The position numbers and the translations under genes are program-made. The notes beneath the pieces were generated by a model. That model saw only the letters and a list, made by a program, of their open reading frames with translations, was not told where the DNA came from and made no database searches. This document shows positions 19,844 through 50,922 of a stretch of 58,923 bases of DNA, one piece after another. Position 1 is the first letter of the stretch, and every line of letters starts with the position of its first letter. Origin of the DNA: Gemmataceae bacterium (GTDB lineage Bacteria > Planctomycetota > Planctomycetia > Gemmatales > Gemmataceae); the NCBI GenBank assembly GCA_035296965.1, contig DATGZX010000367.1, forward strand, positions 1-58,923, in the 5' to 3' direction.

Positions 19844-19950
19844 CGGAATCCTGCACGGTGATGTAGTTGACGTTATCGTCCGGCCCAGCGGAAGTCAAAC
19901 CGGTGCCGGCGGAATCTTTGCGTGCAGGCCTACAAAACGAGGGCCCTCCC

Positions 19951-25900: not shown

Positions 25901-28900
25901 CCGATCTGCTCGACGCGGCGAACCAAGTCAGTGGTGGCGAGCGCTTCGATGTGCAGGTCGAACAAGGGCTAAAAGCTGCCGTCAAAGCATTGAAACCCAG
26001 CGCCTTGCCGGCGGCGGTCAGCGCTCTCTTGACACCGCTCGAGACCAAATCCACGGATAAGCCCGCGCTTGACATGGTGCTGATTGTCGACTCTCGCGAC
26101 ATCAGCAAGGCAACGCTGAATAGCTTGCTTGCCGCGGCCATCAAATCGACGGCCAAAGTTCCCGAGGTTCGACACAGCGCCCTGGCCAAGCTTGCCGAGC
26201 TGACCAAGAAGCATCCCACCGATCATGGAGTCCAGGTTGCGAACGCGCTGGTGGCAATGGCGGACGGTAAACCCAAAGAGATTCAGGACGCGATCGAGCG
26301 GTTGGTCAAGCTAATGGATGCCACGCAGTTGGAGAAATTGCCGGCCAACGGAAAGCTCAACGCGCGCCATCGGGCCGCGGCCCAGCTGCAAGTGCCGCTT
26401 TGGCTCGCCGCCCGGGAATGCCTCGACAAGGATCGGCCGCAGCTCTGGCCCGCAGGCGAGAAACTGGCCGCACGTGCTGCCGAGGCCGCCAAACGTCAAC
26501 AAGATGCACTGGTCACGGTCGCTGTTTTCCATGAATGGGGCCAACTGGAGTTGGACAAGGGCGATAAAGCGAAAGCCCAAGCCATCTGGGCGGAGCTGAT
26601 GGAATGGACTCTGCCCAAGCAGCCGGCAGCCAAGGCGGCGGCAGGACCGAAGCCAGCGACATCGGTCCCAGCCACTCCGGCGGCACCTGCACTTGTGCCC
26701 TCTCCCAAGTCGCCCCTGGCATTACGCGGCGTGGCCGCGGCCCTTCTTGTCCTCGTGCAAGCCCCCGTGCCGCCTGCGGGAGCGCCTAACCCGCAACCTG
26801 CACGCACACCGTCACGCTCCAGCGCTCCGGCCCCCACGGAAGACGAATTCAAGCGATCCTATGAGATCGCTCAGTTGGCCATCGACAAGCAAATGCCGGA
26901 CCTGTCATTGCGTACGATGCAGGCGGCGGTACGTGGCGGTCCGCCTATCGCGGTGACGGAGAATCGGAATTTTGGCGGCATGTATCGATCGCGCATGATT
27001 AACGGGACGCAATACCTTGTCAGCGGAGGCAATTCGCGACGTGTCACGGTTGACCAGGCTCTACTGGCTCTGATCCCCAAATGGCGTGCCCAGAGTGTGG
27101 CCGCCGCGAGAATCTATGAGCTGCTCGTGGCCGCTGTCTTGCCGGACGCGCGCCCGGCGGAGGTCTTTCTTTATCCTCCTTTACAAAACTTCGGCCAGGT
27201 CTATACGCTCGTCGGAGGAATGTGGACGCCCGCACAGGGAATCATCGACGACGTGGAAGATCGCGGGCTCGGCCAAGCGTTGATCCAGGCAGCTCTCGAG
27301 GCCGGCAAGACGGGCGACCTTCGCCAGCGGCTCGAAACGCGCGCCAAGCAGCCGCTGGGTGAGCTGCCCGCCAAAATCATGCTGGCCATGCTCGGCATGC
27401 GGGCCAAGGACCAGGCTCTCGCCACGTTGACCTTTCGCTCCCTGGGTGATCGGCTCAAGAAGGATTCATCGCAAACCACCAACGCCACCATCGCCGCCGT
27501 TCTCGTTGTCGCTTTGAACGATCCCAAGTATGCCGAGTTGGTCGTTCCGTTCATCGACAAGACAGCACAGAACTACCTGACCGCCGGCAATGCGCAAGCT
27601 GCGGCCGAAGTTCGTTTCCGGTTGGCGGAATACTATGTGCACCGCCAAGACGAAGCGGCCGCCAGAGCCCAGTTCAAGTTGGTGGAAAGCTCCGACAAAA
27701 AGGCCGGGGCAGGCAACTTTGACATGCATCAGACCGTGGCTAGAGAATTCCTGAAGCTCGGCTGGGTGGAAGATGCTCTGCGCGAGTTTGGCTATCAAGC
27801 TGACAATCCGAACGATTCGGCCACCAATACCAACAATGAGAATATGGCAGGTCAGCCGCGCATGGAACCAATGCTGCCGGGTAGTTTTGAACGCCTGGCG
27901 GTTCTGCTGCTGCAGATGCCAGCCGCCAAGCGCTATGAGGTGCTCAAGACGTGGACCCTACCGACCAAGAGCCGCAAGTCGATCCGCTACTACGTGGGCG
28001 CGTCGCCAAAAGAGATTCCCCCGGAGATCTTTGGCAAGCCTCCTTCGTTCCCTGCACATCGCAGCTTGAGCACCATGCTGATTCTGGCAGATGCAGCCAA
28101 GGAGGCTGGGAAAGGTGAGGAGTTGATTGCCGAAGTAGAGCGCCTGGCCAATGACAAGGTGGAAAACGCCGAGACGTTCAAGGTACTCGTCTATCTTGCC
28201 CAGGGAAAAGGGAAGGACATTGAGCCGGCGGTGAAAGCTTTCGCCGAATCGGCACACAAGCGCCTCACGGAAAAACGCGAACAGCCGCTGGGCTTCAACC
28301 GGTACTACTATAACGGCGGCGATAATCAGCAGCCCGCGCCACCATACCCGAGTGAGTTTATTTTCGCAGCGCTATGCCACAACGATCCCGCCCTGGCTGC
28401 ATCGGGTGAAGACGTACTGTCGGCAATGCTCGGCAGCCGCTGGGCGGGCAACGATCCCGACCTGAACGCCCGGGTCCAGCACACGCGCGATCAATGGGAT
28501 GCCAAGCGCGCGGGCGCTCCGGACGTGTTTGCCGGCGCCTTGCCGCCTCTCTGGCACGCCAGCACTCCCGATTCGAGCTGGATCGCTCACGACGGTTATC
28601 TCGCGCAAATGCCGGGAGATCAGGCTTCTTCCCTACTGGTCGATTATCCGTTCACTGGAACGTTTGAGTTTTCCGTCGACGTTAGTCCGATGGGCGGCGC
28701 CGCGGGATACGGCGGCATCACGTTCACGCCCTCTTCAATGCAGGTTGCCTCCACGGTGCCGGGTGATACGATCCAGCAGCAAATCCCGACCAATCAGCAA
28801 GGCGACTTTGCTCGTCTTACTGTCCAGGTCTCTCCGCAGAAGATTCGCTGCCTCGTCAACGGCGTGCTTTTCTACGAGGACATCAATCCGGCTCCGACAA

Positions 28901-31580: not shown

Positions 31581-34442
31581 GTGGTCGGCGCTCGCTGGTA
31601 TTACCCATTGACAGCTTGCCTTGCCTTGGCCACCGTCCTTATTCCCTCGGCCATCGGCCAAGTTGGCAAGCCCGTCCTAGCCAAGCCCGCAGTATTTCCC
31701 GAGCCGATCCAGTTCGAACCCAAGCCGCAAACCGCTCGTCAAGACGACGAGGCGCTGGCGGTCGCTTATTCTCCGGACGGCAATTTGCTCGCCTCGGCCG
31801 GCGCGGACGGTGTAACGCGTCTCTGGGAGCCATCGACCGCCAAACTCCTGGCCAAGTTACCCGGCCATCGCGATGCGGTTGCCGCGCTTGCTTTCTCGCG
31901 GGACGGGCGCATGCTGGCCACGGCTTCCTACGACAAAACGATCAAGGTCTGGGACGTCGCCGCGCGCAAGGAGACCTGCACAATCACAGGGCATAGTAAC
32001 GCTGTCCTGGCCGTGGCATTTCTGTCTGGCGGCGCGCGGCTGGTTTCGGGAGGGGCAGATCGCCTTGTTAAGCTCTGGGATGTGCCGGCCAAGAAGGAGC
32101 TTGCCTCGTATGGGGAACACAAGGGGGCAGTTCGTGGTATCGCCGTCTCGCCGGACGGCAAAACCATCGCTTCGGCCGGGAGTGACCGCCGGGTGATCCT
32201 CTGGAACGTGGACGGTTGGACCTCTGCCGGAACTCTCAGCAGCCATAAGGGGCCGGTTCGTGCGATCGCTTTTTCGCCGGACGGCCGCTTGCTCGCCAGC
32301 GCGGCTGAGGACAAGACCATCATCATCTGGGACGTTGCAACTCGCAAGGAAAAGCACAGCATGGAAGGGCATACCGAAGCCGTCACTGCGCTCGCGTTTT
32401 CACCGCGCGGACAGCTGCTGGCAAGCGCGAGTGTCGACAAGACCCTGCGGCTCTGGGAGACGGCGACGGGCGGTGAGTTGGCCAATCTGGAAGAGGGTCA
32501 CACCGAGGCTATCCAAGGGGTTGCCTTTGCCCCCTCCGGCCGGCAAATCGCCACCGCCTCGGCGGACAAGACCATCGGCCTATGGTCCTCCGCCTTGCCG
32601 CGCGTCTTCGCTGCGCGGACCTACCAAAACCGGACCGGACCGACCGGCGTTACTGCTATTTCCCCCGACGGCAAGCGCCTGGCCGTTCTTGGAGACAAAC
32701 ACGCGATTCTCGTGCTCGACGCCCAAAGCGGCCAGACCCTGGCGGTCTTGCAAGGCCACCGCAGTGCGATCGTGGACCTGACGTTCAGCCCCGACGGAGC
32801 CTGGCTCGTGAGCAGCGGCCGCGACCGGGTTGGCATGCTCTGGGATGTGGCCGGCGGCCGGCGGCTCGCCCTGCTCGACGGGCATCGCGGCACGGTGCGC
32901 GCCGCGGCGTTCGCCCCGAACGGCAAGCTGCTTGCCACGGGCGGGGCAGACAAGCGCATCCTGATTTACGATCTACCGCCTACAGGGTCGAGCGTGACCG
33001 AGCTGCGCGAGCGCACCGTGCTCGAAGGTCATCGGGGCGCGGTCTCGTGTTTGGCCTTTTCCCACGATAGCCGCCTGCTTGCCAGCGGTTCGGATTTGGT
33101 GACCCGCAAAGCGCCGGCCGAGGTCAAGTTGTGGGAGCTGGCCGCCGGCAAGCAGATCGCGTCTTGGATCGATCATACCGGCGACGTCGCGGCACTGGCT
33201 TTTCACCCAACTCGCCCAGTGCTGGTGTCGGGCGGGGCGGACCCCGGCTTCCGTGTCTGGGATCTCGACGCACGCAAGCCAATTCTTTTTCGCCCAACAC
33301 AATCCGCAGTGATCTCGCTTGCCTTCACCGGCGGCGGCACAGAGTTACTTACCGGATCGGTGGGACGCACTCTGCTCGCCTGGGACACGGAGAGCTGGCG
33401 CGAACAACTTCGCTTCGTCGGCCACACGGGGGCAGTCACCAAGCTCTGCGTTCTTGCGGGGACACAAGGAGCACCCATACTCTCAGCTTCCGCCGACAGG
33501 TCGCTGCGTTCGTGGTCCATGACTGCGGCGGCCGTTCGCGGCACCCGCTTCGCGGGCCATGAAAGCTGGGTAACGGCGCTCGTGCTCACGCCCGACGGCA
33601 AGAAACTCATCTCCGGCAGCTGGGATGGCACAGTCCGCATATGGGACGTCGAGACCGCCAAGGCGGATACCGTGCTCGAGTCACACCAGTCGAAGATCTA
33701 CGCCGTCGCTGTTAGCCGGAACGGCAAGCGCGCCGCATCCGCCGGCGGGAACGGCGAAGTCTTCCTCTGGGATCTGGAGGCAAACGCCGAGGCCGCCCGA
33801 CTGGAAGGTCACGATGAAGAATCGGAAGTCAACGGCATCGCCTTCACGCCGGACGGTAAGCGGGTAGTGACCGCCGCCTCCGACGGCGATATTCGCATTT
33901 GGGATGCAGCCACCGGCAAAGAACTGGGCAAGATCAAAGGTCCCAAGGAGGGCATCCTCGCCCTGGCCCTGAGCCCAGACGGGCGCCAAGCCGTCATCTC
34001 CGGAGGCGCCGGTTTCGCATGCACGCTCTACGACCTGGAGACCAAGAAGGAAGTCCGCCGTTTTCTGGGGCACACTGCCGCCGTGCATGCCATTGCCTTT
34101 GCCCCCGACGGCAAACGCATTCTCACAGGCTCGGCGGACCGTACGCTGCGATTCTGGGACATAGCCAGCGGGAATGAACTACGCAAACTTGACGCCCACG
34201 CGGGCTACGTTCGCGGCGTTTGCTTCACCGCCGACGGAGCCGTGGTCGCTTCGGTAGGCTACGACCATGTCAATCGACTCTGGGATTCCAGTGACGGCCG
34301 GCTTCTTATTTCTTTCGAAGTGCACAATCGACCTGCGCTGTCGGTCGCGCTCTCAGCCGACGGCAAGACCGTATATTCCGGTGGTGCCGACGAGTATATC
34401 TTTCGCTGGCGGCAACCGGCGAGCGAAGAAGCGGCGAAATGA
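31581..34442 (+). CDS. WD40-repeat protein with about 20 repeats and an N-terminal signal peptide or anchor
   Basis: GTG start 15 nt after the giant gene's stop, with caggaga 8 nt upstream. There are numerous WD40 units of the form GH...V..LAFSPDG..LASAS.DKT...WD. Confidence 0.85.
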   Translation: MVGARWYYPLTACLALATVLIPSAIGQVGKPVLAKPAVFPEPIQFEPKPQTARQDDEALAVAYSPDGNLLASAGADGVTRLWEPSTAKLLAKLPGHRDAVAALAFSRDGRMLATASYDKTIKVWDVAARKETCTITGHSNAVLAVAFLSGGARLVSGGADRLVKLWDVPAKKELASYGEHKGAVRGIAVSPDGKTIASAGSDRRVILWNVDGWTSAGTLSSHKGPVRAIAFSPDGRLLASAAEDKTIIIWDVATRKEKHSMEGHTEAVTALAFSPRGQLLASASVDKTLRLWETATGGELANLEEGHTEAIQGVAFAPSGRQIATASADKTIGLWSSALPRVFAARTYQNRTGPTGVTAISPDGKRLAVLGDKHAILVLDAQSGQTLAVLQGHRSAIVDLTFSPDGAWLVSSGRDRVGMLWDVAGGRRLALLDGHRGTVRAAAFAPNGKLLATGGADKRILIYDLPPTGSSVTELRERTVLEGHRGAVSCLAFSHDSRLLASGSDLVTRKAPAEVKLWELAAGKQIASWIDHTGDVAALAFHPTRPVLVSGGADPGFRVWDLDARKPILFRPTQSAVISLAFTGGGTELLTGSVGRTLLAWDTESWREQLRFVGHTGAVTKLCVLAGTQGAPILSASADRSLRSWSMTAAAVRGTRFAGHESWVTALVLTPDGKKLISGSWDGTVRIWDVETAKADTVLESHQSKIYAVAVSRNGKRAASAGGNGEVFLWDLEANAEAARLEGHDEESEVNGIAFTPDGKRVVTAASDGDIRIWDAATGKELGKIKGPKEGILALALSPDGRQAVISGGAGFACTLYDLETKKEVRRFLGHTAAVHAIAFAPDGKRILTGSADRTLRFWDIASGNELRKLDAHAGYVRGVCFTADGAVVASVGYDHVNRLWDSSDGRLLISFEVHNRPALSVALSADGKTVYSGGADEYIFRWRQPASEEAAK

Positions 34443-37762: not shown

Positions 37763-39094
37763 ATGCAATGGGGTCACGACGCGTCTTGGACTCGACGACA
37801 TTTCTTACGCTCAGGCGCGGCCGCTTGCACAGTGAGTCTCTCCGGCTGGCTGAGCCGTCTCGCCTACGCCGCAAGTGGCGACCCGAAGCGGACCCGAAGT
37901 TGCATCCTCCTGTGGATGAATGGCGGCCCTGCGACGATTGACCTGTGGGATCTCAAGCCCGGTCATGCCAACGGCGGCCCGTACAAGGCGATTGCTACCA
38001 AGGCCCCTGGTCTGAAGATTGGCGAACATCTTCCCAAACTGGCGAGCTGGGGCGACCGTCTCGCCGTCATTCGTTCCATGACGACGAAGGAGGGCGATCA
38101 TGGCCGCGCTGCCTATCTCCTCCGCACCGGCAACTTGCCCCTGGGCGGCATTGACTTCCCCACTCTGGGATCGCTCGTCGCCAAAGAGCTGCATCGCGAA
38201 GGAGCCGATCTGCCGCCTTTTGTCAGCATCGCTCCACAGCGCTTCCTGGCACAGAATGCCTTCGGACCGGGCTTCCTCGGACCGCTATACGCACCCTTGC
38301 TGGTCGCCGACGGCCAGCGGGCAGCGCTGGGCGGCGCTAATAACCAGGGCGTCGATCAGCAGCTTAAAGTCGAAAACCTGCAACGCATCTCCGGTGTCGG
38401 CGCCGACCAGGCCGACCGCCGGCTTGCTCTCATGCGCAACCTGGAGACCGATTTCCTGGCATCCCATCCCGGCGCGATTGCGGATAGCCACCGGTCGGCT
38501 TATGGGGCCGCCGTCCGGCTGATGCATCCCGAAACGGCCCGGGTTTTCGAATTTGCGAGCGAGAAAGCCGAATTACGCGACCGCTATGGCCGCAACCTCT
38601 TTGGCCAAGGATGTCTCCTTGCCCGGCGACTCGTTGAACGAGGCGTCCCGTTCGTCGAAGTCACGCTCGATGGCTGGGATACGCATGCGAATAATTTTGA
38701 CGGCGTCAAGAACCTGTGCGGCGTGCTCGACCCGGCCTGGTCCACCCTCATGGCGGATCTGAAGGATCGCGGCCTGCTCGAATCAACGCTGGTGGTTTGC
38801 ATGGGCGAGTTCGGCCGGACGCCGAAGATCAATCCGCAAAAGGGCCGCGACCACTTCCCCAATGCCTGGAGCGCTGTCCTGGCCGGGGGCGGCATCAAGG
38901 GCGGCCAAGCCGTCGGCCGAAGCAGCAAGGACGGCATGCAAGTCGAGGAGCGGCCGTGCGGCGTCCCCGACCTCCTAGCCACGATTTGTCGAGCAATAGG
39001 TATCGATTCTGAAAAACAGAACATGTCGAATGTGGGCCGACCCATCCGTATCGTGGACAAGGCTGCCCGGCCAATCTCTGAAGTGCTGGTATGA
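37763..39094 (+). CDS. DUF1501 (sulfatase-like) protein with a Tat signal
   Basis: Tat signal RRHFLRSGAAA and the conserved core CILLWMNGGPATIDLWDLKP...FGRTP. The RBS aggagg lies 7 nt upstream of the ATG. This is the canonical partner of a DUF1549/DUF1553 gene. Confidence 0.85.
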   Translation: MQWGHDASWTRRHFLRSGAAACTVSLSGWLSRLAYAASGDPKRTRSCILLWMNGGPATIDLWDLKPGHANGGPYKAIATKAPGLKIGEHLPKLASWGDRLAVIRSMTTKEGDHGRAAYLLRTGNLPLGGIDFPTLGSLVAKELHREGADLPPFVSIAPQRFLAQNAFGPGFLGPLYAPLLVADGQRAALGGANNQGVDQQLKVENLQRISGVGADQADRRLALMRNLETDFLASHPGAIADSHRSAYGAAVRLMHPETARVFEFASEKAELRDRYGRNLFGQGCLLARRLVERGVPFVEVTLDGWDTHANNFDGVKNLCGVLDPAWSTLMADLKDRGLLESTLVVCMGEFGRTPKINPQKGRDHFPNAWSAVLAGGGIKGGQAVGRSSKDGMQVEERPCGVPDLLATICRAIGIDSEKQNMSNVGRPIRIVDKAARPISEVLV

Positions 39095-40791
39095 CGCTTC
39101 GCTCCATCTTGATTCCCTCTGCGCTGCTGGGCTGCCTGGCAACTGCCCTGGCGCCAGCCGAGCCGCCGGCAAAAGCTCAATCTCCTGAGAGCGTTCGCGA
39201 TTTGGTCTACTGGGGCGTGGGTGGCCCGACACGCATCCGCTTGCGCATTAGGATCGCTGGCCGTCCAGCAGACCTCCTCTGGTCAGATGCAGTCGAGGCG
39301 CTTTTTGCCTTCTGCGATCGCAACGGCGACGGCGTACTCGACCCGGCCGAATATGCACCGTTCGTCGAGCAGCGCCGCGGGAGAGTCATGCAAATCGCGC
39401 TGGACGAAGCCGCAGGCTTGCCGGCTCTACGCCTGGACTTTGACCGGCGAAATGCAAAAGTCACCCGTGCCATCTTTGATTCCGCATTGCGCGAAGCCGG
39501 GTTTGGGCCGGTTGTGCTCTCCGTGCGGCGGGCACAGCCCGATTCTCAACGGCTCAGCAGTATTCTTTTTCGACGGCTGGACCGCGACGGCGACGGCAAG
39601 CTCTCGACCGCTGAGCTGCGCGATGCCCGCGACCGATTGGCATTCTTCGACGCGAACGAAGACGAATTCATTTCCGTGACGGAGTTGCTAGGCAATGTCG
39701 ACGCGAGCCCGATTGCACCTGCGGCTTTGCAGCGCAGCGACTCCTCGGATGCAACCGACTCGACGTCCGACTTGGTGTTATTGCCCCCGGACCGCGAGGC
39801 GGCCGTGCAACAAATTGTGGCTTCCCGTGGCGATGCCAAGCGCAAGGCGATTCGTCGCGCCGAGTTTGGGGGCGACGAGAGGACGTTCGCTGCGCTTGAC
39901 AAGAACAGTGACGGCAAGCTCGACGCCGCGGAGTTGGAAGGTTGGCTGAAGCAGCCTCCCGACCTGGAAATAGTGGTATCCGCGGGCACGCCCTTGGCGC
40001 CAGGCCAATCGACGCACCGCCTCTATACTTTGGTCTCCGAGCCAGGAAGTAGCAAGTTGCGGGTGCAAACCGCCCCTGGCATTGAAGCCTCTTCGGAACG
40101 ATTTTACTTCCGTTTCGACCAGCCCGTCGCTGTCGATCGCCGGGGCACGCTCCCCAGCAGGGAGATCGACGTGATCCGCGCGGAGATGAAGCGCCTCGCC
40201 GACGGCAAGGGCATTGTCCAGCGCAAGCAAGTGGAAGCTAGCCCGCGGCAACCAGGCTCATTCGCTGCGCTCGCATTTTTTGATTTTGCCGACCTCAATG
40301 CCGACGGCAAACTTGAAACCGCGGAAGTGGAGGCGGCGCTCAAGGTTCTTGCTCCCCTGTTTGCCGGCTGCCGCATGAGGATAACAGTTCAAGATCAAGG
40401 CACTGGCCTTTTCGAGTTGCTGGATCGAAACGGCGACAGCCGATTGTCGCCGCGTGAATTGGTAAACGCTATCGAGGTCCTGAAGCCCTTCGCGGATTCG
40501 ACCGGCAAGGTGAGCCCCGCTGCCTTGCCCCGGCGTTTCTTCGTCCAAATCGCGGTTGAACCTCTCCCCATATTCTCGTTCCCGGCGCCTATCGCGCTTG
40601 CGAAACCGAGCGCGCCTCCTGAGCGCACCCCCGCCTGGTTTTACGACATGGACCGCAACGGCGACGGCGAGGTGTCGCTCCGCGAGTTCCTTGGGCCCAT
40701 CGAATTGTTTCGCAAGCTGGACAAAAACGGCGACGGCCTCATCAGCCTCGACGAAGCGAGGGCCACCCAGATCGAAAAATCAGGGCGTTGA
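39091..40791 (+). CDS. Secreted EF-hand calcium-binding protein with at least 7 EF-hand loops
   Basis: ATG overlaps the DUF1501 stop (ATGA). Signal peptide present. Repeated D-x-[DN]-x-DG-x-[LIV]-x-x-x-E loops (DRNGDGVLDPAE, DRDGDGKLSTAE, DKNSDGKLDAAE, DLNADGKLETAE, DRNGDSRLSPRE, DRNGDGEVSLRE, DKNGDGLISLDE). Confidence 0.75.
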   Translation: MTLRSILIPSALLGCLATALAPAEPPAKAQSPESVRDLVYWGVGGPTRIRLRIRIAGRPADLLWSDAVEALFAFCDRNGDGVLDPAEYAPFVEQRRGRVMQIALDEAAGLPALRLDFDRRNAKVTRAIFDSALREAGFGPVVLSVRRAQPDSQRLSSILFRRLDRDGDGKLSTAELRDARDRLAFFDANEDEFISVTELLGNVDASPIAPAALQRSDSSDATDSTSDLVLLPPDREAAVQQIVASRGDAKRKAIRRAEFGGDERTFAALDKNSDGKLDAAELEGWLKQPPDLEIVVSAGTPLAPGQSTHRLYTLVSEPGSSKLRVQTAPGIEASSERFYFRFDQPVAVDRRGTLPSREIDVIRAEMKRLADGKGIVQRKQVEASPRQPGSFAALAFFDFADLNADGKLETAEVEAALKVLAPLFAGCRMRITVQDQGTGLFELLDRNGDSRLSPRELVNAIEVLKPFADSTGKVSPAALPRRFFVQIAVEPLPIFSFPAPIALAKPSAPPERTPAWFYDMDRNGDGEVSLREFLGPIELFRKLDKNGDGLISLDEARATQIEKSGR

Positions 40792-40841
40792 CGCCGAACA
40801 GCCGTACTGGTGGAGCTTGGCAGGATGCCCTCGCGTCGTCC

Positions 40842-42500
40842 TTAACTTGAAGCTGCGCTGGGCGGCGCATCAGGCGCCGCGACGTCTGGGACGGTCGTGG
40901 CGCCGTTCGGAGTGGTCGTCTCGGGCTTGAGCCGGGCCAGGTAGTCCGGCATCTCCACGCCGCCGATGTCCTTGAGCACTTGCATCATCGGCGGCATCGA
41001 GCGCACCAGCCCCTGCAGGAAATGGGAGGTGTTGCCGCCCGTGCCGTTGCTGCCGCCGTTTTCCCAGACAACCACCTTGTCGAACTTGATGTTGGAAATC
41101 GCCTTGGCGGACGTTTCCGCGAGCCGGTCCACGTGCTCCAGCATCAGCAGTTGATAAGCCTGCGTGGCGCCGCCGCAGGCTTCGACGATGCGGCGCAAGC
41201 CTTCTGCTTTCTGCGACAGGATTTCGTATTGTCCCTTGGCTTCCGCTTCCAGCTTGGCGAAGATCGCCTTCGCCTGTCCCTCGGCTTCGAGCCGAATGCG
41301 TTCAGCGGCGGCCTCAGCCTCGACGATGATGCGGGCCTTCTCGGCCTTGGCCGGTGCTTCCACAGCGGCGCGGCGCTCGGCTTCCACGCGCTCGGCGTCG
41401 GCCAGTGCAGCCTTAGCCTGGGCGCGGTTTTGCGCTTCCTGGACGGCCGCTTCGGCCTGGCGCTTCTTGGTTTCGCCGAGTTGGAAAGCCTCGGCCTGCT
41501 TGACCTGCAGGTTGGCCTGGGCCAGGGCGATCTCGGCCTGGGCCACAGCCTCGCCGGAGACTGCCTTGGCATTGGCGTCGGCCAAGGCGATGCGCATCGT
41601 GCGCTCCGCGTCTTTCACCTGGGCATCGCGCTCGAAGCCCGCCCTCTGTTCGCCGATTTTCTGCTCCTTGTCCAACTCGGCCAGGCGGACGGCTTGCTCG
41701 CGGCTCGCCTCGCGGGTGCCGATCTCCCGCAGCTTATGGGCGTTGGCGACCTGGACCGCGGTGGTTTGCTGGGCCGCGGCCACACCGATGGCCCCGACCT
41801 TTTCCTGCTCGGCCACGTCGATGAGCGCCTGTTGCACCGCCTGCGACGCCGCCTTCTTGCCAATGGCCTGAATGTACCCGGATTCATCCGTAATATCCGT
41901 GATGTTGACGTTGATCAGCACCAACCCGATTTTGCGCAGCTCCGGCTCCAGAGAAGCCTGGATTCTTTGCAGGAACTGCTCGCGGTGGCGATTGATGTCC
42001 TCGATCCGCATCGAGGCGATGACCTGGCGGAGCTGACCGAAAATGATGTGCTCGGCCTGCTTCTTGATCTCCTCGGTATTGAGACCAAGCAGGCGGATGG
42101 CGGCGTTTTGCATGACCTCCGGCTCGGTGCCGATCGCCACCGTAAAAACGCTCGGCACATTGACGCGGATGTTCTCAATGGACAGGGCGCCGCGGAGCGG
42201 CACCTCGATCTGGATCGGCTCCAGGTTCAGGTAGCCGTAGTCCTGGATGAGCGGCATGACCAGGGCCGCTCCGCCATGGATACAGTGGGCCGTGTTGCCC
42301 CCGCCCACCTTGCCGTAGATGACGAGCACGCGGTTGCTGGGGCAACGCCGGTAACGGCTGGCGAACAGCGAGGCCAGGCTGAGGAACGCCAGGGCCGCGA
42401 CGGCAGCCATGATTCCAAGCCAAAGCGAGGACGAGTTCTCGACGCCGCCGGCAGCCAGCAAGGGACTAAACATGACTGACATTCTCCGCAGTAGGGGCAA
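40842..42500 (-). CDS. Flotillin-like SPFH/Band-7 protein
   Basis: N-terminal TM helix followed by RYRRCPSNRVLVIYGK, which marks the SPFH start as in YqiK/FloT. There is a long Ala/Glu-rich coiled coil in the middle. The true start is probably one of the internal Met codons between about 42410 and 42482, because the longest ORF overlaps the upstream kinase gene. Confidence 0.75.
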   Translation of the reverse strand: MPLLRRMSVMFSPLLAAGGVENSSSLWLGIMAAVAALAFLSLASLFASRYRRCPSNRVLVIYGKVGGGNTAHCIHGGAALVMPLIQDYGYLNLEPIQIEVPLRGALSIENIRVNVPSVFTVAIGTEPEVMQNAAIRLLGLNTEEIKKQAEHIIFGQLRQVIASMRIEDINRHREQFLQRIQASLEPELRKIGLVLINVNITDITDESGYIQAIGKKAASQAVQQALIDVAEQEKVGAIGVAAAQQTTAVQVANAHKLREIGTREASREQAVRLAELDKEQKIGEQRAGFERDAQVKDAERTMRIALADANAKAVSGEAVAQAEIALAQANLQVKQAEAFQLGETKKRQAEAAVQEAQNRAQAKAALADAERVEAERRAAVEAPAKAEKARIIVEAEAAAERIRLEAEGQAKAIFAKLEAEAKGQYEILSQKAEGLRRIVEACGGATQAYQLLMLEHVDRLAETSAKAISNIKFDKVVVWENGGSNGTGGNTSHFLQGLVRSMPPMMQVLKDIGGVEMPDYLARLKPETTTPNGATTVPDVAAPDAPPSAASS

Positions 42501-44457
42501 GGATGACTTCCACAGTATCGGTACCGAGGACCGCCACGACCACGACCTTCGACCCTGTCTCCAGGGTGTCTTCGGCGGTGACGGCCTGGTACTCCATGGT
42601 GCGATTCTGCACGTTGAGCAGGACTTTGCCGAGGCCGGCCTTGTGTCCGGGGATCGGCAGATATACGGTGCCGGCGCGGCCGACGGCGCGGCGAATGCGG
42701 ACGGAGCCGTCCGATTGGAGACTGACCAGCACGCGCATCAGCCAGGCGACCAGGAGAAGGGCGCCGCCGCCGGCTGCCAAGGCCAGGGCCAGCGTCTGGG
42801 CCGGTTGGAAACCGGCCGCGTCGGCTGCCCGCCCACCCAGCCCGAAGAAGGCTACGGCGGCGATGAATGTGCGAACCGTCAGCAACCGAACGAAACCTGT
42901 TGCGTGGGCATCGTGATTGGGGTCGTGCACGTCCTCCGCGTGGCCCGGCTCGCCGCCGAGGTCGTGACCATCGATGCCGTCGCCATGGTGGCCCAGTCCC
43001 AGCAGGCCAAGCAGGAACTGGCAGACCAGCACTGTGCCTCCCATAACGGCGCAGACCGAGTAGAGCATCGTTAATTGATCGTTCAAGGTCTCCTCCCTGC
43101 CTCTCTGGATGAGAACTATCAGGGCGCTCACGAGAATCAGCCCGCCGCACGCGGCACACATGGACGCAACCAGGCGCCAGTGCCGCCGTGGCGGTCCCCC
43201 GGCATTCTGCGGCAGCGCCGGCTCCTCGGCGGCATTCCCGCGGGCATCGAGCGCGTGCACGACATCCGCGGGCGTCGGGTAGCGCTGTGCCGGATCCTTC
43301 GCCAGCATCCGCTCGACGATGCGAACCAGCTCCGGAGGCGCATCGAGGCGGAACTGTGTCAGGGGTGGCGGCGTTCGCTCCGCGTGGGCGATTAGCTTGT
43401 CAATCGCGTCGCCCGTGGGAAACGGCGGCTGGCCGGTAACCAGGTAGTACAGCGTGCAACCCAGGCTGTAGATGTCGGCGCGAATATCGGCGCTTTGTGG
43501 GCTGGCCGCTTGTTCGGGGGCCATGTAGTCTGGCGTCCCGAGCATAGCGCCGGCTTGCGTCAACCCTGGGGCGGGCGTGGCGAAACCTCCGGCGGCCGGC
43601 GCGCCTGCGGCCGGAGCAGAATCCCGAGCCAAGCGGGCCAGCCCGAAATCCAGGATCTTGATCTGGCCTTCGGGGGTGCGGATCAGGTTGGCCGGCTTGA
43701 TGTCACGATGGACCATGCCATGTTGGAACGCGTACTGGAGTCCGAGGGCCGCCTGGCGAACGCAGTCGCAGGCCAGCGGAATCGGCAGCGGCCCCTGGCG
43801 CTTGACGAGTCGATCCAGGCTGTCGCCCTCGACATATTCCATGACGAGGAAATGAATATCGCCGGCTTGTTCCGCATCGTAAGCCGTGACGATGTGCGGG
43901 TGCACCAACTGGGCGGCGCTGCGGACCTCGCGGCGGAAGCGCTCAATCGCGGCCGGGTCGCCGGTCAGGGCGCGGTTAATGACCTTCAGGGCTACCAGCC
44001 GGCCCATCAACAGATGCTCGGCCTTGTAGACCACGCCCATGCCGCCGATCCCCAGCAATTCCAGGACGCGATAGCGCGGGTGCTGGGCCAGTTCCGGTGG
44101 CACGCCAGGGTCGCCGGCCAGCGGCAGGATGGCGTTGGTCAACGTTGGCGCCTCCTGTGGAACCACGCTCTCGGTGCTGGCATTCGCTTGCAGCTTGGCA
44201 ACGAAGGAATCCGCCGGCAGATTCTCCAGAATGGTCCGGCACAGTGTGCAATCTTCCAGGTGCTCCTGGACGGTCGCCGCCGCAGTCTCGTCGAGCCTGC
44301 CCAGGCCGAACGCGGCCAACTGCTCGCGATCGGGATGTGAAAGGCCTACGCCGTTCATCGGACGAACTCCTTGCCGCACCAAGCGGTGGGGAACGATGCT
44401 TGACGCCCTCCATAAAGGAAAGTGCGCCGGCGACGCCATCCTGTACGAAAACCCCAA
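42466..44457 (-). CDS. Fusion protein: anti-sigma-factor-like zinc finger, Ser/Thr protein kinase, TM region, NfeD-like C-terminal domain
   Basis: N-terminal HPDREQLAAFGLGRL...HLEDCTLCRTIL is anti-sigma zinc-finger-like. Kinase motifs follow: GIGGMGVVYKAEH, VALK, HRDIKPANL, DFGLA. Then come Pro/Ala-rich and His-rich segments and TM helices. The C-terminus (...GKVLLNVQNRTMEYQAVTAED.LETGSKVVVVAVLGTDTVEV) resembles the NfeD beta-barrel. The start codon directly abuts the upstream sigma-factor stop. Confidence 0.65.
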   Translation of the reverse strand: MGFSYRMASPAHFPLWRASSIVPHRLVRQGVRPMNGVGLSHPDREQLAAFGLGRLDETAAATVQEHLEDCTLCRTILENLPADSFVAKLQANASTESVVPQEAPTLTNAILPLAGDPGVPPELAQHPRYRVLELLGIGGMGVVYKAEHLLMGRLVALKVINRALTGDPAAIERFRREVRSAAQLVHPHIVTAYDAEQAGDIHFLVMEYVEGDSLDRLVKRQGPLPIPLACDCVRQAALGLQYAFQHGMVHRDIKPANLIRTPEGQIKILDFGLARLARDSAPAAGAPAAGGFATPAPGLTQAGAMLGTPDYMAPEQAASPQSADIRADIYSLGCTLYYLVTGQPPFPTGDAIDKLIAHAERTPPPLTQFRLDAPPELVRIVERMLAKDPAQRYPTPADVVHALDARGNAAEEPALPQNAGGPPRRHWRLVASMCAACGGLILVSALIVLIQRGREETLNDQLTMLYSVCAVMGGTVLVCQFLLGLLGLGHHGDGIDGHDLGGEPGHAEDVHDPNHDAHATGFVRLLTVRTFIAAVAFFGLGGRAADAAGFQPAQTLALALAAGGGALLLVAWLMRVLVSLQSDGSVRIRRAVGRAGTVYLPIPGHKAGLGKVLLNVQNRTMEYQAVTAEDTLETGSKVVVVAVLGTDTVEVILAPTAENVSHV

Positions 44458-45048
44458 TTAGTCGATCAACCCGCGCGACTCTTGCCGTAAGCGCCTGAGC
44501 ACGCGTGACTTGGCGAGTAAGACCGCGTTGACGGTCATGCCCAGGTCGGCGGCAACGGCGGCGGCGCGCTCGCCTTTCAAGGCCGTGCGCGTGAATGATT
44601 GCCAGCTCTTTGCGTTGAACTCCGGCTCGATCAGCTCCCGCAGCCGCTGAAGCACGTACTGATCATGTTCCTGGTCCCACAGCGTGCTCAGGTCACTTTC
44701 TGGATCTTCGAGCTGCGCCAGTTCTTCGTCGATCGAGTTGTCTCCGTACGTCATAGGCCGCGATTTCTGCGCGCGGCGAAAAGCCAGCAGGCGATGGACC
44801 GCGATGGTCCGCAACCAGCACCGGAACGCGCCCGCTCGGTGGCTGTGCTGAAACGTCGGCAAGCCGCGAATCACCTGACCCAGCACGTCTTGCACGAGAT
44901 CGTCCAGGTCGTGGGACTGCAACGCCCCGCCGAAGCGGCGCAGCCAGCCTTGGATCAACGGCGTGTATAGATCCACAAGCCGCTTCCACGACGGGCCGTC
45001 AGGATGCAGGCGTATCCGGTCCAGAAGACTGGCGGAAGTGTCCGGCAT
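44458..45048 (-). CDS. ECF (sigma-70 family) RNA polymerase sigma factor
   Basis: The sigma2 and sigma4 regions are recognisable (LVQDVLGQVIRGLPTFQ...FRCWLRTIAVHRLL; ...AADLGMTVNAVLLAKSRVLRRLRQ). Length is 196 aa. Confidence 0.85.
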   Translation of the reverse strand: MPDTSASLLDRIRLHPDGPSWKRLVDLYTPLIQGWLRRFGGALQSHDLDDLVQDVLGQVIRGLPTFQHSHRAGAFRCWLRTIAVHRLLAFRRAQKSRPMTYGDNSIDEELAQLEDPESDLSTLWDQEHDQYVLQRLRELIEPEFNAKSWQSFTRTALKGERAAAVAADLGMTVNAVLLAKSRVLRRLRQESRGLID

Positions 45049-45414
45049 TTGGCGTTTCCGGATGTCTCTTCAGCGATAGGCTGATTATCAGTGTACCGGG
45101 CAGTATCCGCAAGCGCTTTCCTGCCGCTTCCGGTTTCACCGATGAGGCAAGGGGTTCCAGTTGCGTCGAGTTTGCGGGCGGCGCCACACCAGGGAGGATA
45201 GCCAGTCCATCATCCAAGCCCAAGCCAGCCATCGAGCCCCGAATTCTTTACTTCCGCGTGCCGACCCAGTATTCCTCAGCTTTGGCACAAAGATCAAGAG
45301 GGAGAATAACCCGGCCGCCAACGGCCGCGTTCGGTCCTGTCTCTGTGCGCGCCCTGCCCTGCCTCTATAATAATAATCGTGAGGCATGTCCCAGAGTCGA
45401 AGGCCAGGAGTGCA

Positions 45415-45762
45415 ATGTCTGCGTCCCGTTCAGTACCATTGCTGCCATTGACCCTGAACAAGGAGGGAGCGGATCGTCTTGTCATTCAATGGAATGACGG
45501 CCACCGCAGTGTCTATGCCTGGCAACACCTGCGAAATTGCTGTCCGTGTGCGGCCTGCCGAGAGGAACATCTGAAACCGGTCGATCCTTTCCGCATCCTG
45601 AAAGCCACCGAGCTGGTGCCGCTGGCGCCGGTCGCCATGGCGCCGGTCGGGCACTATGCCTATAAGATCACCTGGAGCGACGGCCATGACTCGGGGATCT
45701 ACACGCTTGAGAGCCTCCGGGAGTTATGCCAGTGCCCGGCATGTGCCGGCAAAGCAAAATAA
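45415..45762 (+). CDS. DUF971 protein, the usual ApbC/Mrp neighbour
   Basis: LVIQWNDGHRSVYAWQHLRNCCPCAACREE...YAYKITWSDGHDSGIYTLESLRELCQCPAC is the duplicated DUF971 pattern. The internal ATG was preferred to the upstream GTG because a TATAAT-like box lies directly upstream of that GTG. Confidence 0.7.
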   Translation: MSASRSVPLLPLTLNKEGADRLVIQWNDGHRSVYAWQHLRNCCPCAACREEHLKPVDPFRILKATELVPLAPVAMAPVGHYAYKITWSDGHDSGIYTLESLRELCQCPACAGKAK

Positions 45763-47652: not shown

Positions 47653-49128
47653 CTATTCGATTGCATCCTCGTTCCCGGTGACAGTCCGGGCAATCGTGAT
47701 GCCTAGTTCGCGGAGCTTGGTTCGTAAGCTTCCGCGGGTTATTCCCAAGATCTTGGCCGCTTGCAACTGGTTGCCACCAGTGTGCTGCAGGACGCGCGTA
47801 AGCAGGATCCGTTCCACGCGGCGCAACAGTTCATCATAGAGATTGGCCGTCCCGCTTTGGAGTCGATCCTCGACGAGTTGTGCCAGGGCCGGAAATCCTT
47901 CGCTGCCGTTAAGTTGCTTTCCCTTCGCTAAGAGGATGGCGCTCTCGAGCAGGTGATCTTTATCGCGCAGCGAATCGGGTAGAAAATCTGGCAACAAGGT
48001 CGGGCCCACGGCCTGTAGGAGCGCCTGTTTGAGCGCACTCTGCAATTCGCGGACATTTCCCGGCCAGGAGTATTGCCGCAGGAGGTCGAGCGTTTCCGGC
48101 GCGACAGTCTGTACTTCTTTGAGCATTTCCAGGTTGAAGCGGTGAAGGTAGTGCTGTACCAATGCAATAAGATCGTCGCCGCGCTCGCGCAGCGGCGGTA
48201 GCCGGATCGTGAATACGCTCAATCGGTAGTACAAATCCTGACGGAATTTTCCGCTCGCGACCAGCGGTTCGAGGTCTTGATTCGTGGCTGCCAGCACGCG
48301 CACGTCCGTTTGAATGGTCTCGTTGCCGCCCAGTCTCTCGAACCGCTGTTCTTGCATGAGGCGCAGCATCTTGCTCTGAGTCAACGGCGACATGTCCGCA
48401 ACTTCGTCGAGAAACAAAGTGCCGCCGGAACATTGTTCGAATTTGCCGATGCGCCGGCGGTCCGCCCCGGTGAACGCGCCCTTCTCGTGGCCGAACAGCT
48501 CGCTTTCGAGGAGATGTTCCGGGATCGCGGCGCAATTGATTGCCAGGAATGGTCCGGCCGCACGGCGGCTGTGCTGGTAAATCGCCCGCGCCACCAATTC
48601 TTTACCCGTACCGCTCTCTCCGCCGATCAGGACCGTGACGTCCTGCTCGGCCACGCGGCCGATGTCCTTGTAGACCTTTTGCATCGCTGGGCAGCGGCCG
48701 ATGATCGCATCAGCGCGATCGTCCACCACCTCGGCCTCCGCGACGACCGCGGGAACGTGCATTTTCCTGCTAATGGCCAAAGCCTGGTCGACCACCTGCC
48801 TGAGCTGCGCTAATTCCAAAGGTTTCAGAAGGTATTCATAGGCCCCTAACTTGGTTGCCTCGATGGCCGTATCCGTCGTGCTCTTGCCGGTAATGAAAAT
48901 CACTGGGCTGCGGGCATCTAATTCGTGAAGCTTGCGCAACACTTCCAGTCCATTCATGTCCGGCAGATGGATATCCAGGATAATGACATCGGGGTGGTAT
49001 TCTTGAGCAAGGGCCAATCCCTCGGTCGCGGTTTCTGCTGTACGAATCTGCAGAGCGCTATCGCGGTAGGCCCGCCGGAAGGCCGCCAGAATCGACGGCT
49101 CATCATCAACGACCAAAAGTGTCGGCAT
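47653..49128 (-). CDS. Sigma-54-dependent two-component response regulator (NtrC family)
   Basis: A REC domain (LVVDDEPSI...DVIILDIHLPDMNGLEV), an AAA+ sigma-54 activator domain (GESGTGKELVARAIY..., the GAFTGA motif, Walker B) and a C-terminal Fis-type HTH. Confidence 0.9.
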   Translation of the reverse strand: MPTLLVVDDEPSILAAFRRAYRDSALQIRTAETATEGLALAQEYHPDVIILDIHLPDMNGLEVLRKLHELDARSPVIFITGKSTTDTAIEATKLGAYEYLLKPLELAQLRQVVDQALAISRKMHVPAVVAEAEVVDDRADAIIGRCPAMQKVYKDIGRVAEQDVTVLIGGESGTGKELVARAIYQHSRRAAGPFLAINCAAIPEHLLESELFGHEKGAFTGADRRRIGKFEQCSGGTLFLDEVADMSPLTQSKMLRLMQEQRFERLGGNETIQTDVRVLAATNQDLEPLVASGKFRQDLYYRLSVFTIRLPPLRERGDDLIALVQHYLHRFNLEMLKEVQTVAPETLDLLRQYSWPGNVRELQSALKQALLQAVGPTLLPDFLPDSLRDKDHLLESAILLAKGKQLNGSEGFPALAQLVEDRLQSGTANLYDELLRRVERILLTRVLQHTGGNQLQAAKILGITRGSLRTKLRELGITIARTVTGNEDAIE

Positions 49129-49154
49129 AGCGTATTCTCGCCTTACTTCCTCAC

Positions 49155-49266
49155 GAGCCTGCTGAAAAAGGGGTCTGACCCCCTACGAAGCTTCACTGAT
49201 TTCCTACCATCTCGGGGGTCTATCGCACTTCGTGGAAGGGGTCTGACCCCTTTTTCAGCAGGCTCC
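49155..49266. repeat. Palindromic element copy B, filling the 138-bp intergenic space between the sensor kinase stop and the response-regulator start
   Basis: gagcctgctgaaaaaggggtctgaccccc ... aaggggtctgacccctttttcagcaggctc: terminal inverted repeats of 28 nt with one mismatch. The inner sequence extends the stem (ctacgaag...cttcgtgg). It shares the core TGAAAAAGGGGTC[A/T]GAC with copy A at 8976-9087. Confidence 0.65.
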
Positions 49267-50922
49267 TCACACGGGCAGGGTAAACGTGAACACGGCCCCG
49301 CCCGCCGGCAGATTATCGCCTCGGATCGTGCCGCCGTGCGCTTCGATCAGCCGTTTGCAAATACTTAGCCCTAGTCCAACGCCTGTCTCCTTGCTGCTGA
49401 CAAACGGCTCGAACAACCGCTCGCGAATCCGCGGTGCAATACCAGAGCCAGTGTCGCACACGCGGATCTCAAGGGAGCGCTCCGGAGATTTGGCAGGCGT
49501 TCCATTGCCCGATGGAACGAACTCGCGGACATTCACTTGAATCGTGCCGCCGCGCGGCAGCGCATCGAGCGCGTTGAGGAGCAGATTCACCATCACCTGA
49601 TGAATCTGCTCAGGGTCAATCAAGACGGGGATTGGCTCGGCGGGCAAATCGGCGGCGAGCGTAACCCTCTGCCGGCGCGCTCGCCCCTCGACTAGCGACA
49701 GTGAGCGGCGCAAAACCGCAAGCAAGTCTGTCTGGCGACGTTCGGAACGCGGCGGCTTGGCGAAATCGAGGAACATCTGGATGCACTGTTCCATGCGCCG
49801 GACCTCGTGCTCGATGATACGCAAGTCTTCTTGCGGCAGGCCCACAGAGGCGCCCCCTTCCAGCCCGGTTTGCACCAGCATTTTGACGGAGGTGAGCGGA
49901 TTGCGCAGCTCGTGCGCCACACCTGCAGCCACTTGGCCGACCGCGGCCAATTGTTCCGAGCGGAGCACCTCGCGTTCCCGCTGCTGGAGTTGGTCGACGA
50001 TACGTTCGATCTCGGCCAGGACTCCTTGCAACTGGCGATGCAAATCCGGCAGGTCCCCATCCTCTTGCAGAGTGACGGAGCCGAGTTCTCGGTTGAGCCG
50101 GCCGGCTGCATCGCGGATGCCCACACTCAACTGATAAATGGAATGGCGCAAGCTCTGCGCGACGGCATATCCCAACAACAACCCGCTTAGTGGCGCACCT
50201 AGGCCGACGGCCAGCAGGCCCCACTTCAGTTGTTTGACGATCCTCTCGTTCTCGTTGTCGGATCTCTCGATCTGCCCAGCGTTATAAGCCCTTAGCTCCG
50301 TGCATGGGACGAGGACATCCTCCTTAACCTGGCGGGCAAGATCCTTGTCAAAATTTGCCTGGTCGACTTCAGTGAGTTCTTTACCGCGCTCCGCCCACCG
50401 ATCCAGGTATCTTTGGAATCCCGCTTCGATCTTGTTGACGTAGTCCTTTTCTGGATCATGATTAGCTAGGCGATTGGCATCTGCCAAGAATCCACGAGCT
50501 TCATCGTTCCGACCATTGATATCCTGCACCAGTCGATTGGGATGGTCGCGATTCGGCTGTTCAAGCTTGCTGATAATTTCTTTGGCTACCTTTTCGAGAC
50601 TGTGTGCCGCACTGGTGCTCTGCACATTCTCAGTCAGTTCCTCGGAGACCTTGACGTGCAGGCGGTTGAGGTACAAGACGGCCAGAATACAGACCCCTAC
50701 CAATGCCAAGCTGACGAGTACGGTCGGGGCCAACAACTTCAGCGCTAAGGGTCTGCTGAGCACGAGCTGCCTCGGGAGAGTGCGGCAAGGAACGGGAAAT
50801 TTGCTTCCTTCATTATAGGCGAGCCGGAGTGTGATTGGGGCCAAACGAGGGAAGGTTGAATCACCCGCGATATGGGAGCACGATTCGCTCTTGCCATCAG
50901 CGCAAAGAAAAACCCGCGCCAA
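49267..50922 (-). CDS. Sensor histidine kinase (TM, HAMP-like, HisKA, HATPase_c)
   Basis: TM helix near the N-terminus and a second TM helix (LLAVGLGAPLSGLLLGYAVA). The H-box VAHELRNPL and the N/G boxes in the C-terminus are present. The exact start is uncertain; the track ORF may begin too far upstream. Confidence 0.8.
   Translation of the reverse strand: MARVFLCADGKSESCSHIAGDSTFPRLAPITLRLAYNEGSKFPVPCRTLPRQLVLSRPLALKLLAPTVLVSLALVGVCILAVLYLNRLHVKVSEELTENVQSTSAAHSLEKVAKEIISKLEQPNRDHPNRLVQDINGRNDEARGFLADANRLANHDPEKDYVNKIEAGFQRYLDRWAERGKELTEVDQANFDKDLARQVKEDVLVPCTELRAYNAGQIERSDNENERIVKQLKWGLLAVGLGAPLSGLLLGYAVAQSLRHSIYQLSVGIRDAAGRLNRELGSVTLQEDGDLPDLHRQLQGVLAEIERIVDQLQQREREVLRSEQLAAVGQVAAGVAHELRNPLTSVKMLVQTGLEGGASVGLPQEDLRIIEHEVRRMEQCIQMFLDFAKPPRSERRQTDLLAVLRRSLSLVEGRARRQRVTLAADLPAEPIPVLIDPEQIHQVMVNLLLNALDALPRGGTIQVNVREFVPSGNGTPAKSPERSLEIRVCDTGSGIAPRIRERLFEPFVSSKETGVGLGLSICKRLIEAHGGTIRGDNLPAGGAVFTFTLPV

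Follow-up and report, generated by a model that had tools for sequence, protein, structure and literature searches.

The window analysed here, a stretch of 58,923 nt from a Gemmataceae bacterium (GCA_035296965.1, contig DATGZX010000367.1), contains a three-gene operon in which a sigma factor-kinase signalling pair appears to have taken up an NfeD protein as its C-terminal membrane or input module. The first gene encodes an extracytoplasmic function (ECF) sigma factor and the third a flotillin. The gene between them encodes a single protein that joins a putative zinc-binding anti-sigma (ZAS) domain, a Hanks-type Ser/Thr kinase, an extra transmembrane helix (TM1) and an NfeD2-type module. We give a probability of about 0.55 to the reading that NfeD serves this pair as membrane or input module while the sigma factor is controlled by sequestration on the fused anti-sigma domain. 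All parts come from known families and both pairings, sigma-kinase and NfeD-flotillin, are known, the locus being a recombination of these two modules.

Three co-directional minus-strand open reading frames (ORFs) for sigma factor, fusion protein and flotillin, in this order, were read from the window. They agree with the domain matches and bear out an earlier model-made annotation (the sequence-only reading), which had described three consecutive genes. The longest possible ORFs span 44458-45048 (196 aa), 42466-44457 (663 aa from TTG) and 40842-42500 (552 aa). A 100% identical protein of 630 aa (P0121) is on record for the window contig under the name 'MAG TPA: serine/threonine-protein kinase [Gemmataceae bacterium]' and starts at M34 (ATG 44358). 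Because of this recorded start, the true fusion gene is probably 42466-44358, 630 aa plus stop; the 663 aa given in the sequence-only reading correspond to an ORF that exists, but only as the longest possible one. It follows that 99 nt separate the sigma and kinase genes, and of the abutting or overlapping boundaries described earlier only the second was retained: the flotillin gene probably starts at ATG 42473 and shares 8 nt with the end of the fusion gene (ATGTTTAG), an overlap that points to translational coupling. The flotillin gene itself lies outside 42466-45048, the interval to which it had been assigned. Beyond the flotillin gene the flank is convergent (an EF-hand protein gene, 39091-40791) and on the sigma side it is divergent (GBBH-like_N and Mrp/ParA genes); the trio therefore forms an isolated unit. 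The features of the locus are collected in Table 1.

Table 1. Features of the sigma-fusion-flotillin locus, with window coordinates and residues of the 630-aa protein. AF2, AlphaFold2; TM, transmembrane.
Feature	Position	Strand	Basis
ECF (group 4) sigma factor, 196 aa	44458..45048	-	Sigma70_r2, TIGR02937
Fusion gene, 630 aa + stop: putative anti-sigma zinc finger, Hanks kinase, TM1, NfeD2	42466..44358	-	P0121, family alignment, AF2
Putative ZAS-type anti-sigma domain, residues 1-61 of 630	44176..44358	-	Invariant ligands, profile matches, zf-HC2
Hanks-type Ser/Thr kinase, residues about 95-372	43243..44076	-	Pkinase, invariant catalytic motifs
TM1, extra helix, residues about 391-418	43105..43188	-	AF2 helix 391-418; stand-alone homologues begin after it
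NfeD2/YuaF-type module, residues 422-630: three TM helices, loop, OB barrel	42469..43095	-	Homologues, AF2, Foldseek
His/Asp-rich cytoplasmic loop (predicted), residues about 453-485	about 42904-43002	-	Composition, AF2
Five-stranded OB barrel	about 42499-42675	-	AF2 model
Flotillin (SPFH2/FloT-like), 543 aa from ATG 42473	40842..42473	-	Band_7, FloT model

The C-terminal third of the fusion protein is a whole NfeD protein, more than the NfeD-like domain noted earlier, and is assigned as such because of its fold, architecture and synteny. A search with residues 425-663 (663-aa numbering) returned 143 homologues, which are mostly stand-alone proteins of 200-220 aa and begin just downstream of TM1 of the window protein. 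JGI labels several of them 'membrane protein implicated in regulation of membrane protease activity', a name that we take to be the COG1585/NfeD annotation. The AF2 model of residues 455-663 contained three helices (module positions 2-31, 62-93 and 98-130) in front of an OB barrel with a pLDDT of 84-91, so that the region did model as the fold expected by the sequence-only reading. When this model was compared with the PDB using Foldseek, the top three matches were all NfeD proteins: YuaF (2K14) as the best, with E 5e-5, a TM-score of 0.79 and a root-mean-square deviation of 2.4 Å, followed by YbbJ (in the QmcA-YbbJ complex, 8Z5G) and 3CP0. Matches to a designed 'Bagel' propeller in a PDB profile search of the module were rejected as spurious; they consist of 22-residue stretches that are individually insignificant. 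The segment that had been described as a His-rich linker is in fact a loop inside the module. Its composition (GHHHDxGGxDxHD...) is conserved in fused and stand-alone homologues, it is predicted to be disordered, and it could bind metal. To our knowledge, such a loop is not a feature of YuaF or YbbJ.

The third gene product matched Band_7 over residues 54-234 (E 1e-26) and the FloT model NF058507 (E 7e-40, far below its equivalog cut-off). An A/E/Q-rich region is visible in the translation after SPFH, in line with the long Ala/Glu-rich coiled coil of SPFH2 proteins. An NfeD-like gene was followed by a flotillin gene in 79 of 80 genomic loci (Planctomycetota and Hydrogenedentota, plus a few metagenome-assembled genomes (MAGs) labelled otherwise). 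The NfeD-flotillin pair of the window is therefore an ordinary known operon, as the sequence-only reading had assumed, and a kinase was fused in only one of the 80 loci (L001, Gemmataceae). The three TM helices, the OB barrel and a directly downstream, overlapping flotillin gene are shared with other NfeD2-flotillin operons (yuaF-floT of B. subtilis, yqiJ-yqiK of E. coli and nfeD-floA of S. aureus). The window NfeD differs from these in having no gene start of its own, since it continues from the anti-sigma-kinase part via an extra TM helix, and in belonging to a subfamily with the His/Asp-rich cytoplasmic loop and a sub-threshold match to Pfam NfeD. An enzyme fused N-terminally to NfeD and paired with an SPFH protein is also found in the NfeD1b/STOPP type (PH1510, YqeZ; PMC2636767). 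There, however, it is a ClpP-class serine protease with a stomatin, whereas the window combines a Hanks kinase and an anti-sigma domain with a flotillin and a sigma gene.

At the other end of the protein, the N-terminus has the features of a ZAS class I anti-sigma domain. The window protein contains HLEDCTLC, and H8, P9, G20, H33, C37 and C40 (630-aa numbering) were invariant in the 49-sequence alignment of the fused family. In a profile alignment, the putative zinc ligands H8, H33, C37 and C40 fell on H6, H31, C35 and C38 of ChrR, and their spacing agrees with the class I pattern H/C-x(23-26)-H-x3-C-x2-C. A profile of the ~60-residue N-terminus matched RslA (3HUG_B, 9e-6), DdvA (8RLZ, 1e-5) and ChrR (2Q1Z/2Z2S, 3e-5), and RsiW more weakly. 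We assign the domain to the ZAS type because its putative ligands are in register with those of solved anti-sigma factors; its H-x24-H-x3-C-x2-C arrangement lines up with the ligands of ChrR, and the nearest known ZAS factors are ChrR, RslA, RsrA/RshA and RsiW. At the family level zf-HC2 was matched by 33 of 33 scanned members at E ≤ 0.1 (best 5.8e-8), which, together with the ChrR alignment, makes the signal for the anti-sigma-like zinc finger seen in the sequence-only reading firm for the family. In the full-length AF2 model four short helices were predicted (residues 11-18, 24-36, 38-45 and 51-61), followed by a disordered linker. The domain differs from stand-alone ZAS factors in that these ~60 residues with their four short helices and linker form one polypeptide with a kinase.

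The kinase is complete, as had been claimed: Pkinase was matched at E 2e-50, and the Gly-loop, the VAIK Lys, the alphaC Glu and the HRD, DFG and APE motifs are all present and invariant in the family (K125, E144, H217-R218-D219, N224, D237-F238-G239 and A280-P281-E282 in the 49-sequence alignment). In the activation loop, T267 and T275 are likewise invariant. Judged by these motifs the active site is intact, and the full-length AF2 model, with a mean pLDDT of 75.8, reached 80-97 over most of the kinase. Behind the kinase, the motif PPRRHWR precedes TM1, and AF2 placed helices at 391-418 (TM1), 422-452 (TM2), 481-514 (TM3) and 519-556 (TM4), followed by the OB barrel. Positive clusters were found before TM1 and after TM4. 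The positive-inside rule would put the kinase in the cytoplasm together with the OB domain and the His-rich loop, on the same side as the SPFH domain of flotillin. A three-TM NfeD starts N-out, and TM1 would make this compatible with a kinase in the cytoplasm. The parts predicted to face outwards are limited to loops, each a few to about ten residues long. No extracytoplasmic sensor domain was found in the fusion protein, and the input must therefore come from the membrane, the cytoplasm or a partner.

Relatives of the kinase give this arrangement a wider setting. The same N-terminus (Hx3Cx2C) was present in 112 of 117 parsed kinase homologues, many of which carry other C-termini, such as WD40 propellers, TIGR03067 domains or proteases. 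A sigma gene was located upstream in all three paralogue contigs looked up, and also at three further loci whose kinase match reaches the N-terminal region. Since the paralogues share the N-terminus and the sigma gene and differ in the C-terminus, the C-terminus would be the variable module for input or localisation. To judge from these sequences, these bacteria possess a large family of paralogues built as 'sigma + ZAS-kinase + variable C-terminal module', in keeping with the kinase expansion reported in Gemmataceae; in the window fusion, NfeD takes the place of the variable module. Automated JGI names flag the individual parts ('anti-sigma factor RsiW'; 'serine/threonine protein kinase/membrane protein implicated in regulation of membrane protease activity'). 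A contig scan with the full-length family alignment settled on generic kinase motifs (HRD[IV]KPxNL, [IV]K[IV]LDFGLA); the 80 loci that it yielded held mostly unrelated kinases and added none to the fused set, and the scan, useful only for the three further loci mentioned above, was set aside.

The sigma factor matched Pfam Sigma70_r2 (E 6e-10) and TIGR02937 (sigma70-ECF; 44.1 bits against a cut-off of 42.9, residues 22-190 of 196) and has, within about 200 aa, only the sigma2 and sigma4 domains of ECF factors. Its gene stands upstream of a membrane Hanks kinase, an order shared with ECF59, ECF61, ECF62, ECF217 and ECF43 (EcfP/PknT, EcfK/PknS), where the two genes are directly adjacent. Such serine/threonine kinase (STK)-linked groups were proposed to be phosphorylation-controlled and are described as being without anti-sigma factors (PMC7826278), whereas the window kinase has a putative N-terminal ZAS domain. 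ECF43 factors have, in place of the acidic DxxD in region 2.2, uncharged residues with a phospho-acceptor Thr (PMC13147305), and phosphorylation supplies the charge that is missing from the core-binding motif (PMC13147305, PMC8999054). One could accordingly suppose, in line with the relay by phosphorylation proposed in the sequence-only reading, that the window kinase activates its sigma factor by direct phosphorylation, the zinc finger being a docking or regulatory but non-inhibitory element. The pairing of STK and ECF genes that marks the groups proposed to be controlled in this way (PMC7826278) is present, the catalytic motifs of the kinase are intact, and a docking domain would suit a dedicated substrate. 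The window sigma factor, however, retains the acidic DxxDxxQD motif in region 2.2 (HDLDDLVQDV), and D47, D50 and Q53 were invariant when it was aligned with the sigma factors of three other loci (L161, L163 and L079). It is the loss of this motif that makes ECF43 phosphorylation-dependent (PMC8999054), and because DxxDxxQ(D/E) is kept, we do not regard the window sigma factor as ECF43-like. The N-terminal domain, in addition, matches bona fide inhibitory anti-sigma domains and has four putative zinc ligands. Activation by direct phosphorylation is in our opinion unlikely. We infer that the likelier mode of control is one in which the fused anti-sigma domain sequesters the sigma factor and the kinase and flotillin/NfeD assembly modulate this, since the acidic motif of the sigma factor is intact and the fused domain would supply the missing inhibitor.

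The fusion is not an isolated case. In a full-length search, about 49 clusters of proteins 620-710 aa long matched at least 97% of the fusion protein, with identities of 48-74%. In the alignment of the 49 sequences, the catalytic residues and zinc ligands are invariant and the NfeD module is conserved. For the window, a frameshift or mis-assembly was rejected as the cause of the fusion, as the ORF is intact in the window and in the about 49 diverged relatives, and the kinase and the NfeD module are one polypeptide, as had been read from the sequence. The genomic context is conserved as well: all seven fused-relative contigs looked up carry a Sigma70_r2 gene upstream on the same strand (in three cases with one other gene between sigma and kinase) and, downstream, a Band_7 gene that again overlaps by 8 nt, which upholds the linkage to flotillin. 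In a neighbour-joining tree of the NfeD modules, all 43 fused sequences fell in one clade and 67 of 73 clear stand-alone sequences outside it, and the fusion probably had a single origin. It could still be argued that the fusion is a neutral one, in which a sigma-kinase pair landed upstream of nfeD-flotillin and the stop codon was lost, so that NfeD is an anchor and the state of flotillin is not sensed. Most NfeD homologues stand alone, split and deletion variants as well as a stand-alone close homologue exist, and there is a possible internal start before the NfeD module. These points have to be set against a single ORF kept across about 49 clusters down to 48% identity, fused modules that form essentially one clade, a flotillin overlap and an upstream sigma gene kept in seven of seven contigs, and kinases that, unlike their paralogues, have no other sensor domain. 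A merely loose fusion seems quite unlikely to us.

A Pro_CA_2 gene (PF20393, 'putative carbonic anhydrase') of 170-187 aa was observed in five of the seven fused loci (L161 8082-8645, L163 3714-4226, and the contigs of P0132, P0147 and P0012), where it separates sigma from kinase or directly follows flotillin. No homologue was found in the window using tblastn. The Pro_CA_2 protein may be a fourth component of the system.

Based on homology and gene order, we hypothesize the following sequence of events for control by sequestration. The zinc-finger domain would bind the sigma factor and keep it inactive at the membrane, as related anti-sigma domains do. The OB barrel and the TM helices of the NfeD module would dock on flotillin, by analogy with NfeD-FloA of S. 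aureus and with YbbJ-QmcA, and would thereby place the anti-sigma-kinase in or at flotillin assemblies. In S. aureus the NfeD OB domain binds FloA directly on the cytoplasmic side, with NfeD-mediated oligomerisation (PMC11222466). A change in the flotillin/NfeD assembly, brought about by membrane fluidity or membrane-protein stress, might then alter the clustering of the kinase; trans-autophosphorylation could follow, and phosphorylation of the anti-sigma domain, the linker or the sigma factor. The sigma factor would be released, a step for which PknB control of RshA/SigH in M. tuberculosis offers a precedent, as PknB frees SigH and SigE by phosphorylating their ZAS anti-sigma factors (PMC8999054, PMC13147305). 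Free sigma factor may finally transcribe its own operon and so raise flotillin and NfeD on demand.

The same docking would also serve a different output, in which NfeD brings the kinase to flotillin to phosphorylate flotillin, NfeD or client proteins, and the sigma factor only sets the expression of the operon. NfeD does dock on flotillin (PMC11222466), Hanks kinases usually have several substrates (PMC13147305), and the kinase is predicted to be cytoplasmic, as are the SPFH and OB domains. Such an output, however, leaves unexplained both the invariant N-terminal domain and the sigma gene that precedes each paralogue looked up, irrespective of the C-terminal module, and we consider it very unlikely. 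If sequestration operates as proposed, the locus would be a cis-wired analogue of the control of yuaF-floT by sigmaW/RsiW in B. subtilis. Both yuaF-floT and yqeZ-floA are in the core sigmaW regulon (PMC3498285, PMC8144471), and in both systems an ECF sigma factor with a zinc-finger anti-sigma membrane protein, putative in the case of the window, is tied to nfeD-flotillin. In Bacillus, however, the link is in trans via promoters and RsiW is subject to regulated proteolysis, whereas in the window it is found within one operon and partly within one protein, with a kinase added.

Several observations weigh against the reading of the locus as a sequestration device with NfeD as its input. The binding of the anti-sigma domain to the sigma factor and that of NfeD to flotillin are predictions from homology and gene order, the phosphotransfer is hypothetical, and all members of the fused family come from metagenomes or MAGs of uncultured organisms. 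Both terminal domains of the window protein, taken as a single sequence, fall below the Pfam thresholds, although the NfeD signal, like that of the zinc finger, gains weight at the family level. For zf-HC2 the E-value was 0.017, with 15.7 bits for the whole protein and 21.0 bits for the isolated N-terminus against a cut-off of 22.2; for NfeD (PF01957) it was 0.044, with 17.1 bits against a gathering score of 29.1. The NfeD match was weak in all 16 members tested (best E 0.0023), and sequence divergence from Pfam NfeD is shared by the window module and, as reported, YuaF (PMC2636767). The NfeD family is characterised by three hydrophobic stretches and an all-beta domain, and YuaF is only 21% identical to archaeal NfeD (Hinderhofer et al. 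2009, PMC2636767).

The fusion is also labile and has been dispensable in evolution, as a split variant, a deletion and a stand-alone close homologue exist. In the split variant (JGI sample 3300047160, an 11,602-bp contig carrying P0173 and P0012), genes for sigma, a kinase of 400 aa, a TM1-NfeD protein of 235 aa, flotillin and Pro_CA_2 follow each other; the kinase and TM1-NfeD ORFs are in different frames of this one contig and overlap by 31 nt, which reflects either a real split or a frameshift error. The deletion variant (L164, ENA contig k141_6270703) matches window positions 45190-45004 and 43100-41787 at 77-81% DNA identity. It lacks ~1.9 kb encoding sigma, kinase and TM1 and keeps NfeD and flotillin. 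The region upstream of sigma and the first ~15 sigma codons are joined almost directly to the end of TM1, and by manual translation the sigma remnant appears to meet a stop after about 15 codons. The stand-alone close homologue of the NfeD module (P0005) is encoded beside an RND pump gene. Inside the fusion ORF of the window, just upstream of the NfeD module, a strong Shine-Dalgarno-like GGGAGGAG and, 3 nt on, an in-frame TTG (43084-43086) lie at 43084..43097 (-); the ATG that comes next, at 43066-43068, is the position at which stand-alone homologues begin. The deletion variant also has GGGAGGAG-N3-TTG, and the GGGAGGAGACCTTG that it retains is needed there as a start region. Separate translation of NfeD from this internal site is a speculative further point on this side.

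A sigma-dependent promoter, too, was not definable from the three upstream regions available, which have no k-mer of at least 7 nt common to all three. The sequence CTGGAACCC, with an ECF '-35-like' GGAAC, is found at about 45150-45165 (-) of the window, 112 nt upstream of the sigma ATG, and is shared with L161 at a similar distance from sigma; in L161 it sits inside a terminator-like hairpin followed by a T run. By eye only, GGAAC-N16-GAAAC of the window resembles GGAAAC-N16-GAAAC of L163. A scan of 40400-45500 for sigma-70 promoter and terminator signals returned none above shuffled expectation.

In the searchable literature, we found no NfeD fused to a kinase or an anti-sigma factor, no sigma-kinase-NfeD-flotillin operon and no explicit mention of an anti-sigma domain on these planctomycetal kinases, although Jogler et al. 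2012 (PMC3497475) or the supplements of Casas-Pastor et al. 2021 may mention their N-terminal zinc finger. This agrees with the sequence-only reading, which had seen no description of a fusion to NfeD with flotillin linkage, but both pairings are common, and the locus is less exotic than that reading implied. A conserved natural fusion is 'Rosetta-stone' evidence that the kinase and the anti-sigma factor work at the flotillin/NfeD complex. More tentatively, and with some doubt, we suggest that flotillin/NfeD assemblies are a sensory input, in that NfeD on the anti-sigma-kinase reads the state of the scaffold, and the anti-sigma-kinase frees the ECF sigma factor. If so, bacterial flotillin microdomains would for the first time be seen hard-wired to gene regulation. 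As a corollary, the STK-linked ECF sigma factors of Planctomycetes that are described as being without anti-sigma factors would be held by a ZAS domain at the N-terminus of the kinase and not, or not only, be controlled by direct phosphorylation. The role of bacterial flotillins and their NfeD partners is still disputed, and the activation of ECF sigma factors such as sigmaW by membrane stress is described as unclear (PMC8144471). An anti-sigma domain on the kinase also suggests that the working model for a large class of planctomycetal sigma-kinase pairs should be revised. As a compact three-gene system, the locus could be rebuilt in a heterologous host, which makes the link between flotillin and signalling testable. 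If NfeD is merely an anchor, the fusion is only a domain-shuffling curiosity in Gemmataceae.

Other genes were noted around the operon. A sigma-54-dependent response regulator (Response_reg, Sigma54_activat, HTH_8) adjoins a histidine kinase (HisKA, HATPase_c) at 47653-50922 (-), 2.6 kb upstream of the sigma gene. One paralogue locus (P0231) also has a sigma-54 activator nearby, and the presence of such an activator near both loci is probably a coincidence. On the flotillin side, the gene at 39091-40791 (+) encodes a protein of 566 aa that has many EF-hand calcium-binding motifs and whose N-terminus resembles a signal peptide; it comes after genes for PSCyt2/PSD1 and DUF1501, which as a pair are typical of Planctomycetes. 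Further away, a giant ORF of 3,899 aa occupies 19867-31566 (+) and is followed by an ORF of 953 aa at 31581-34442.

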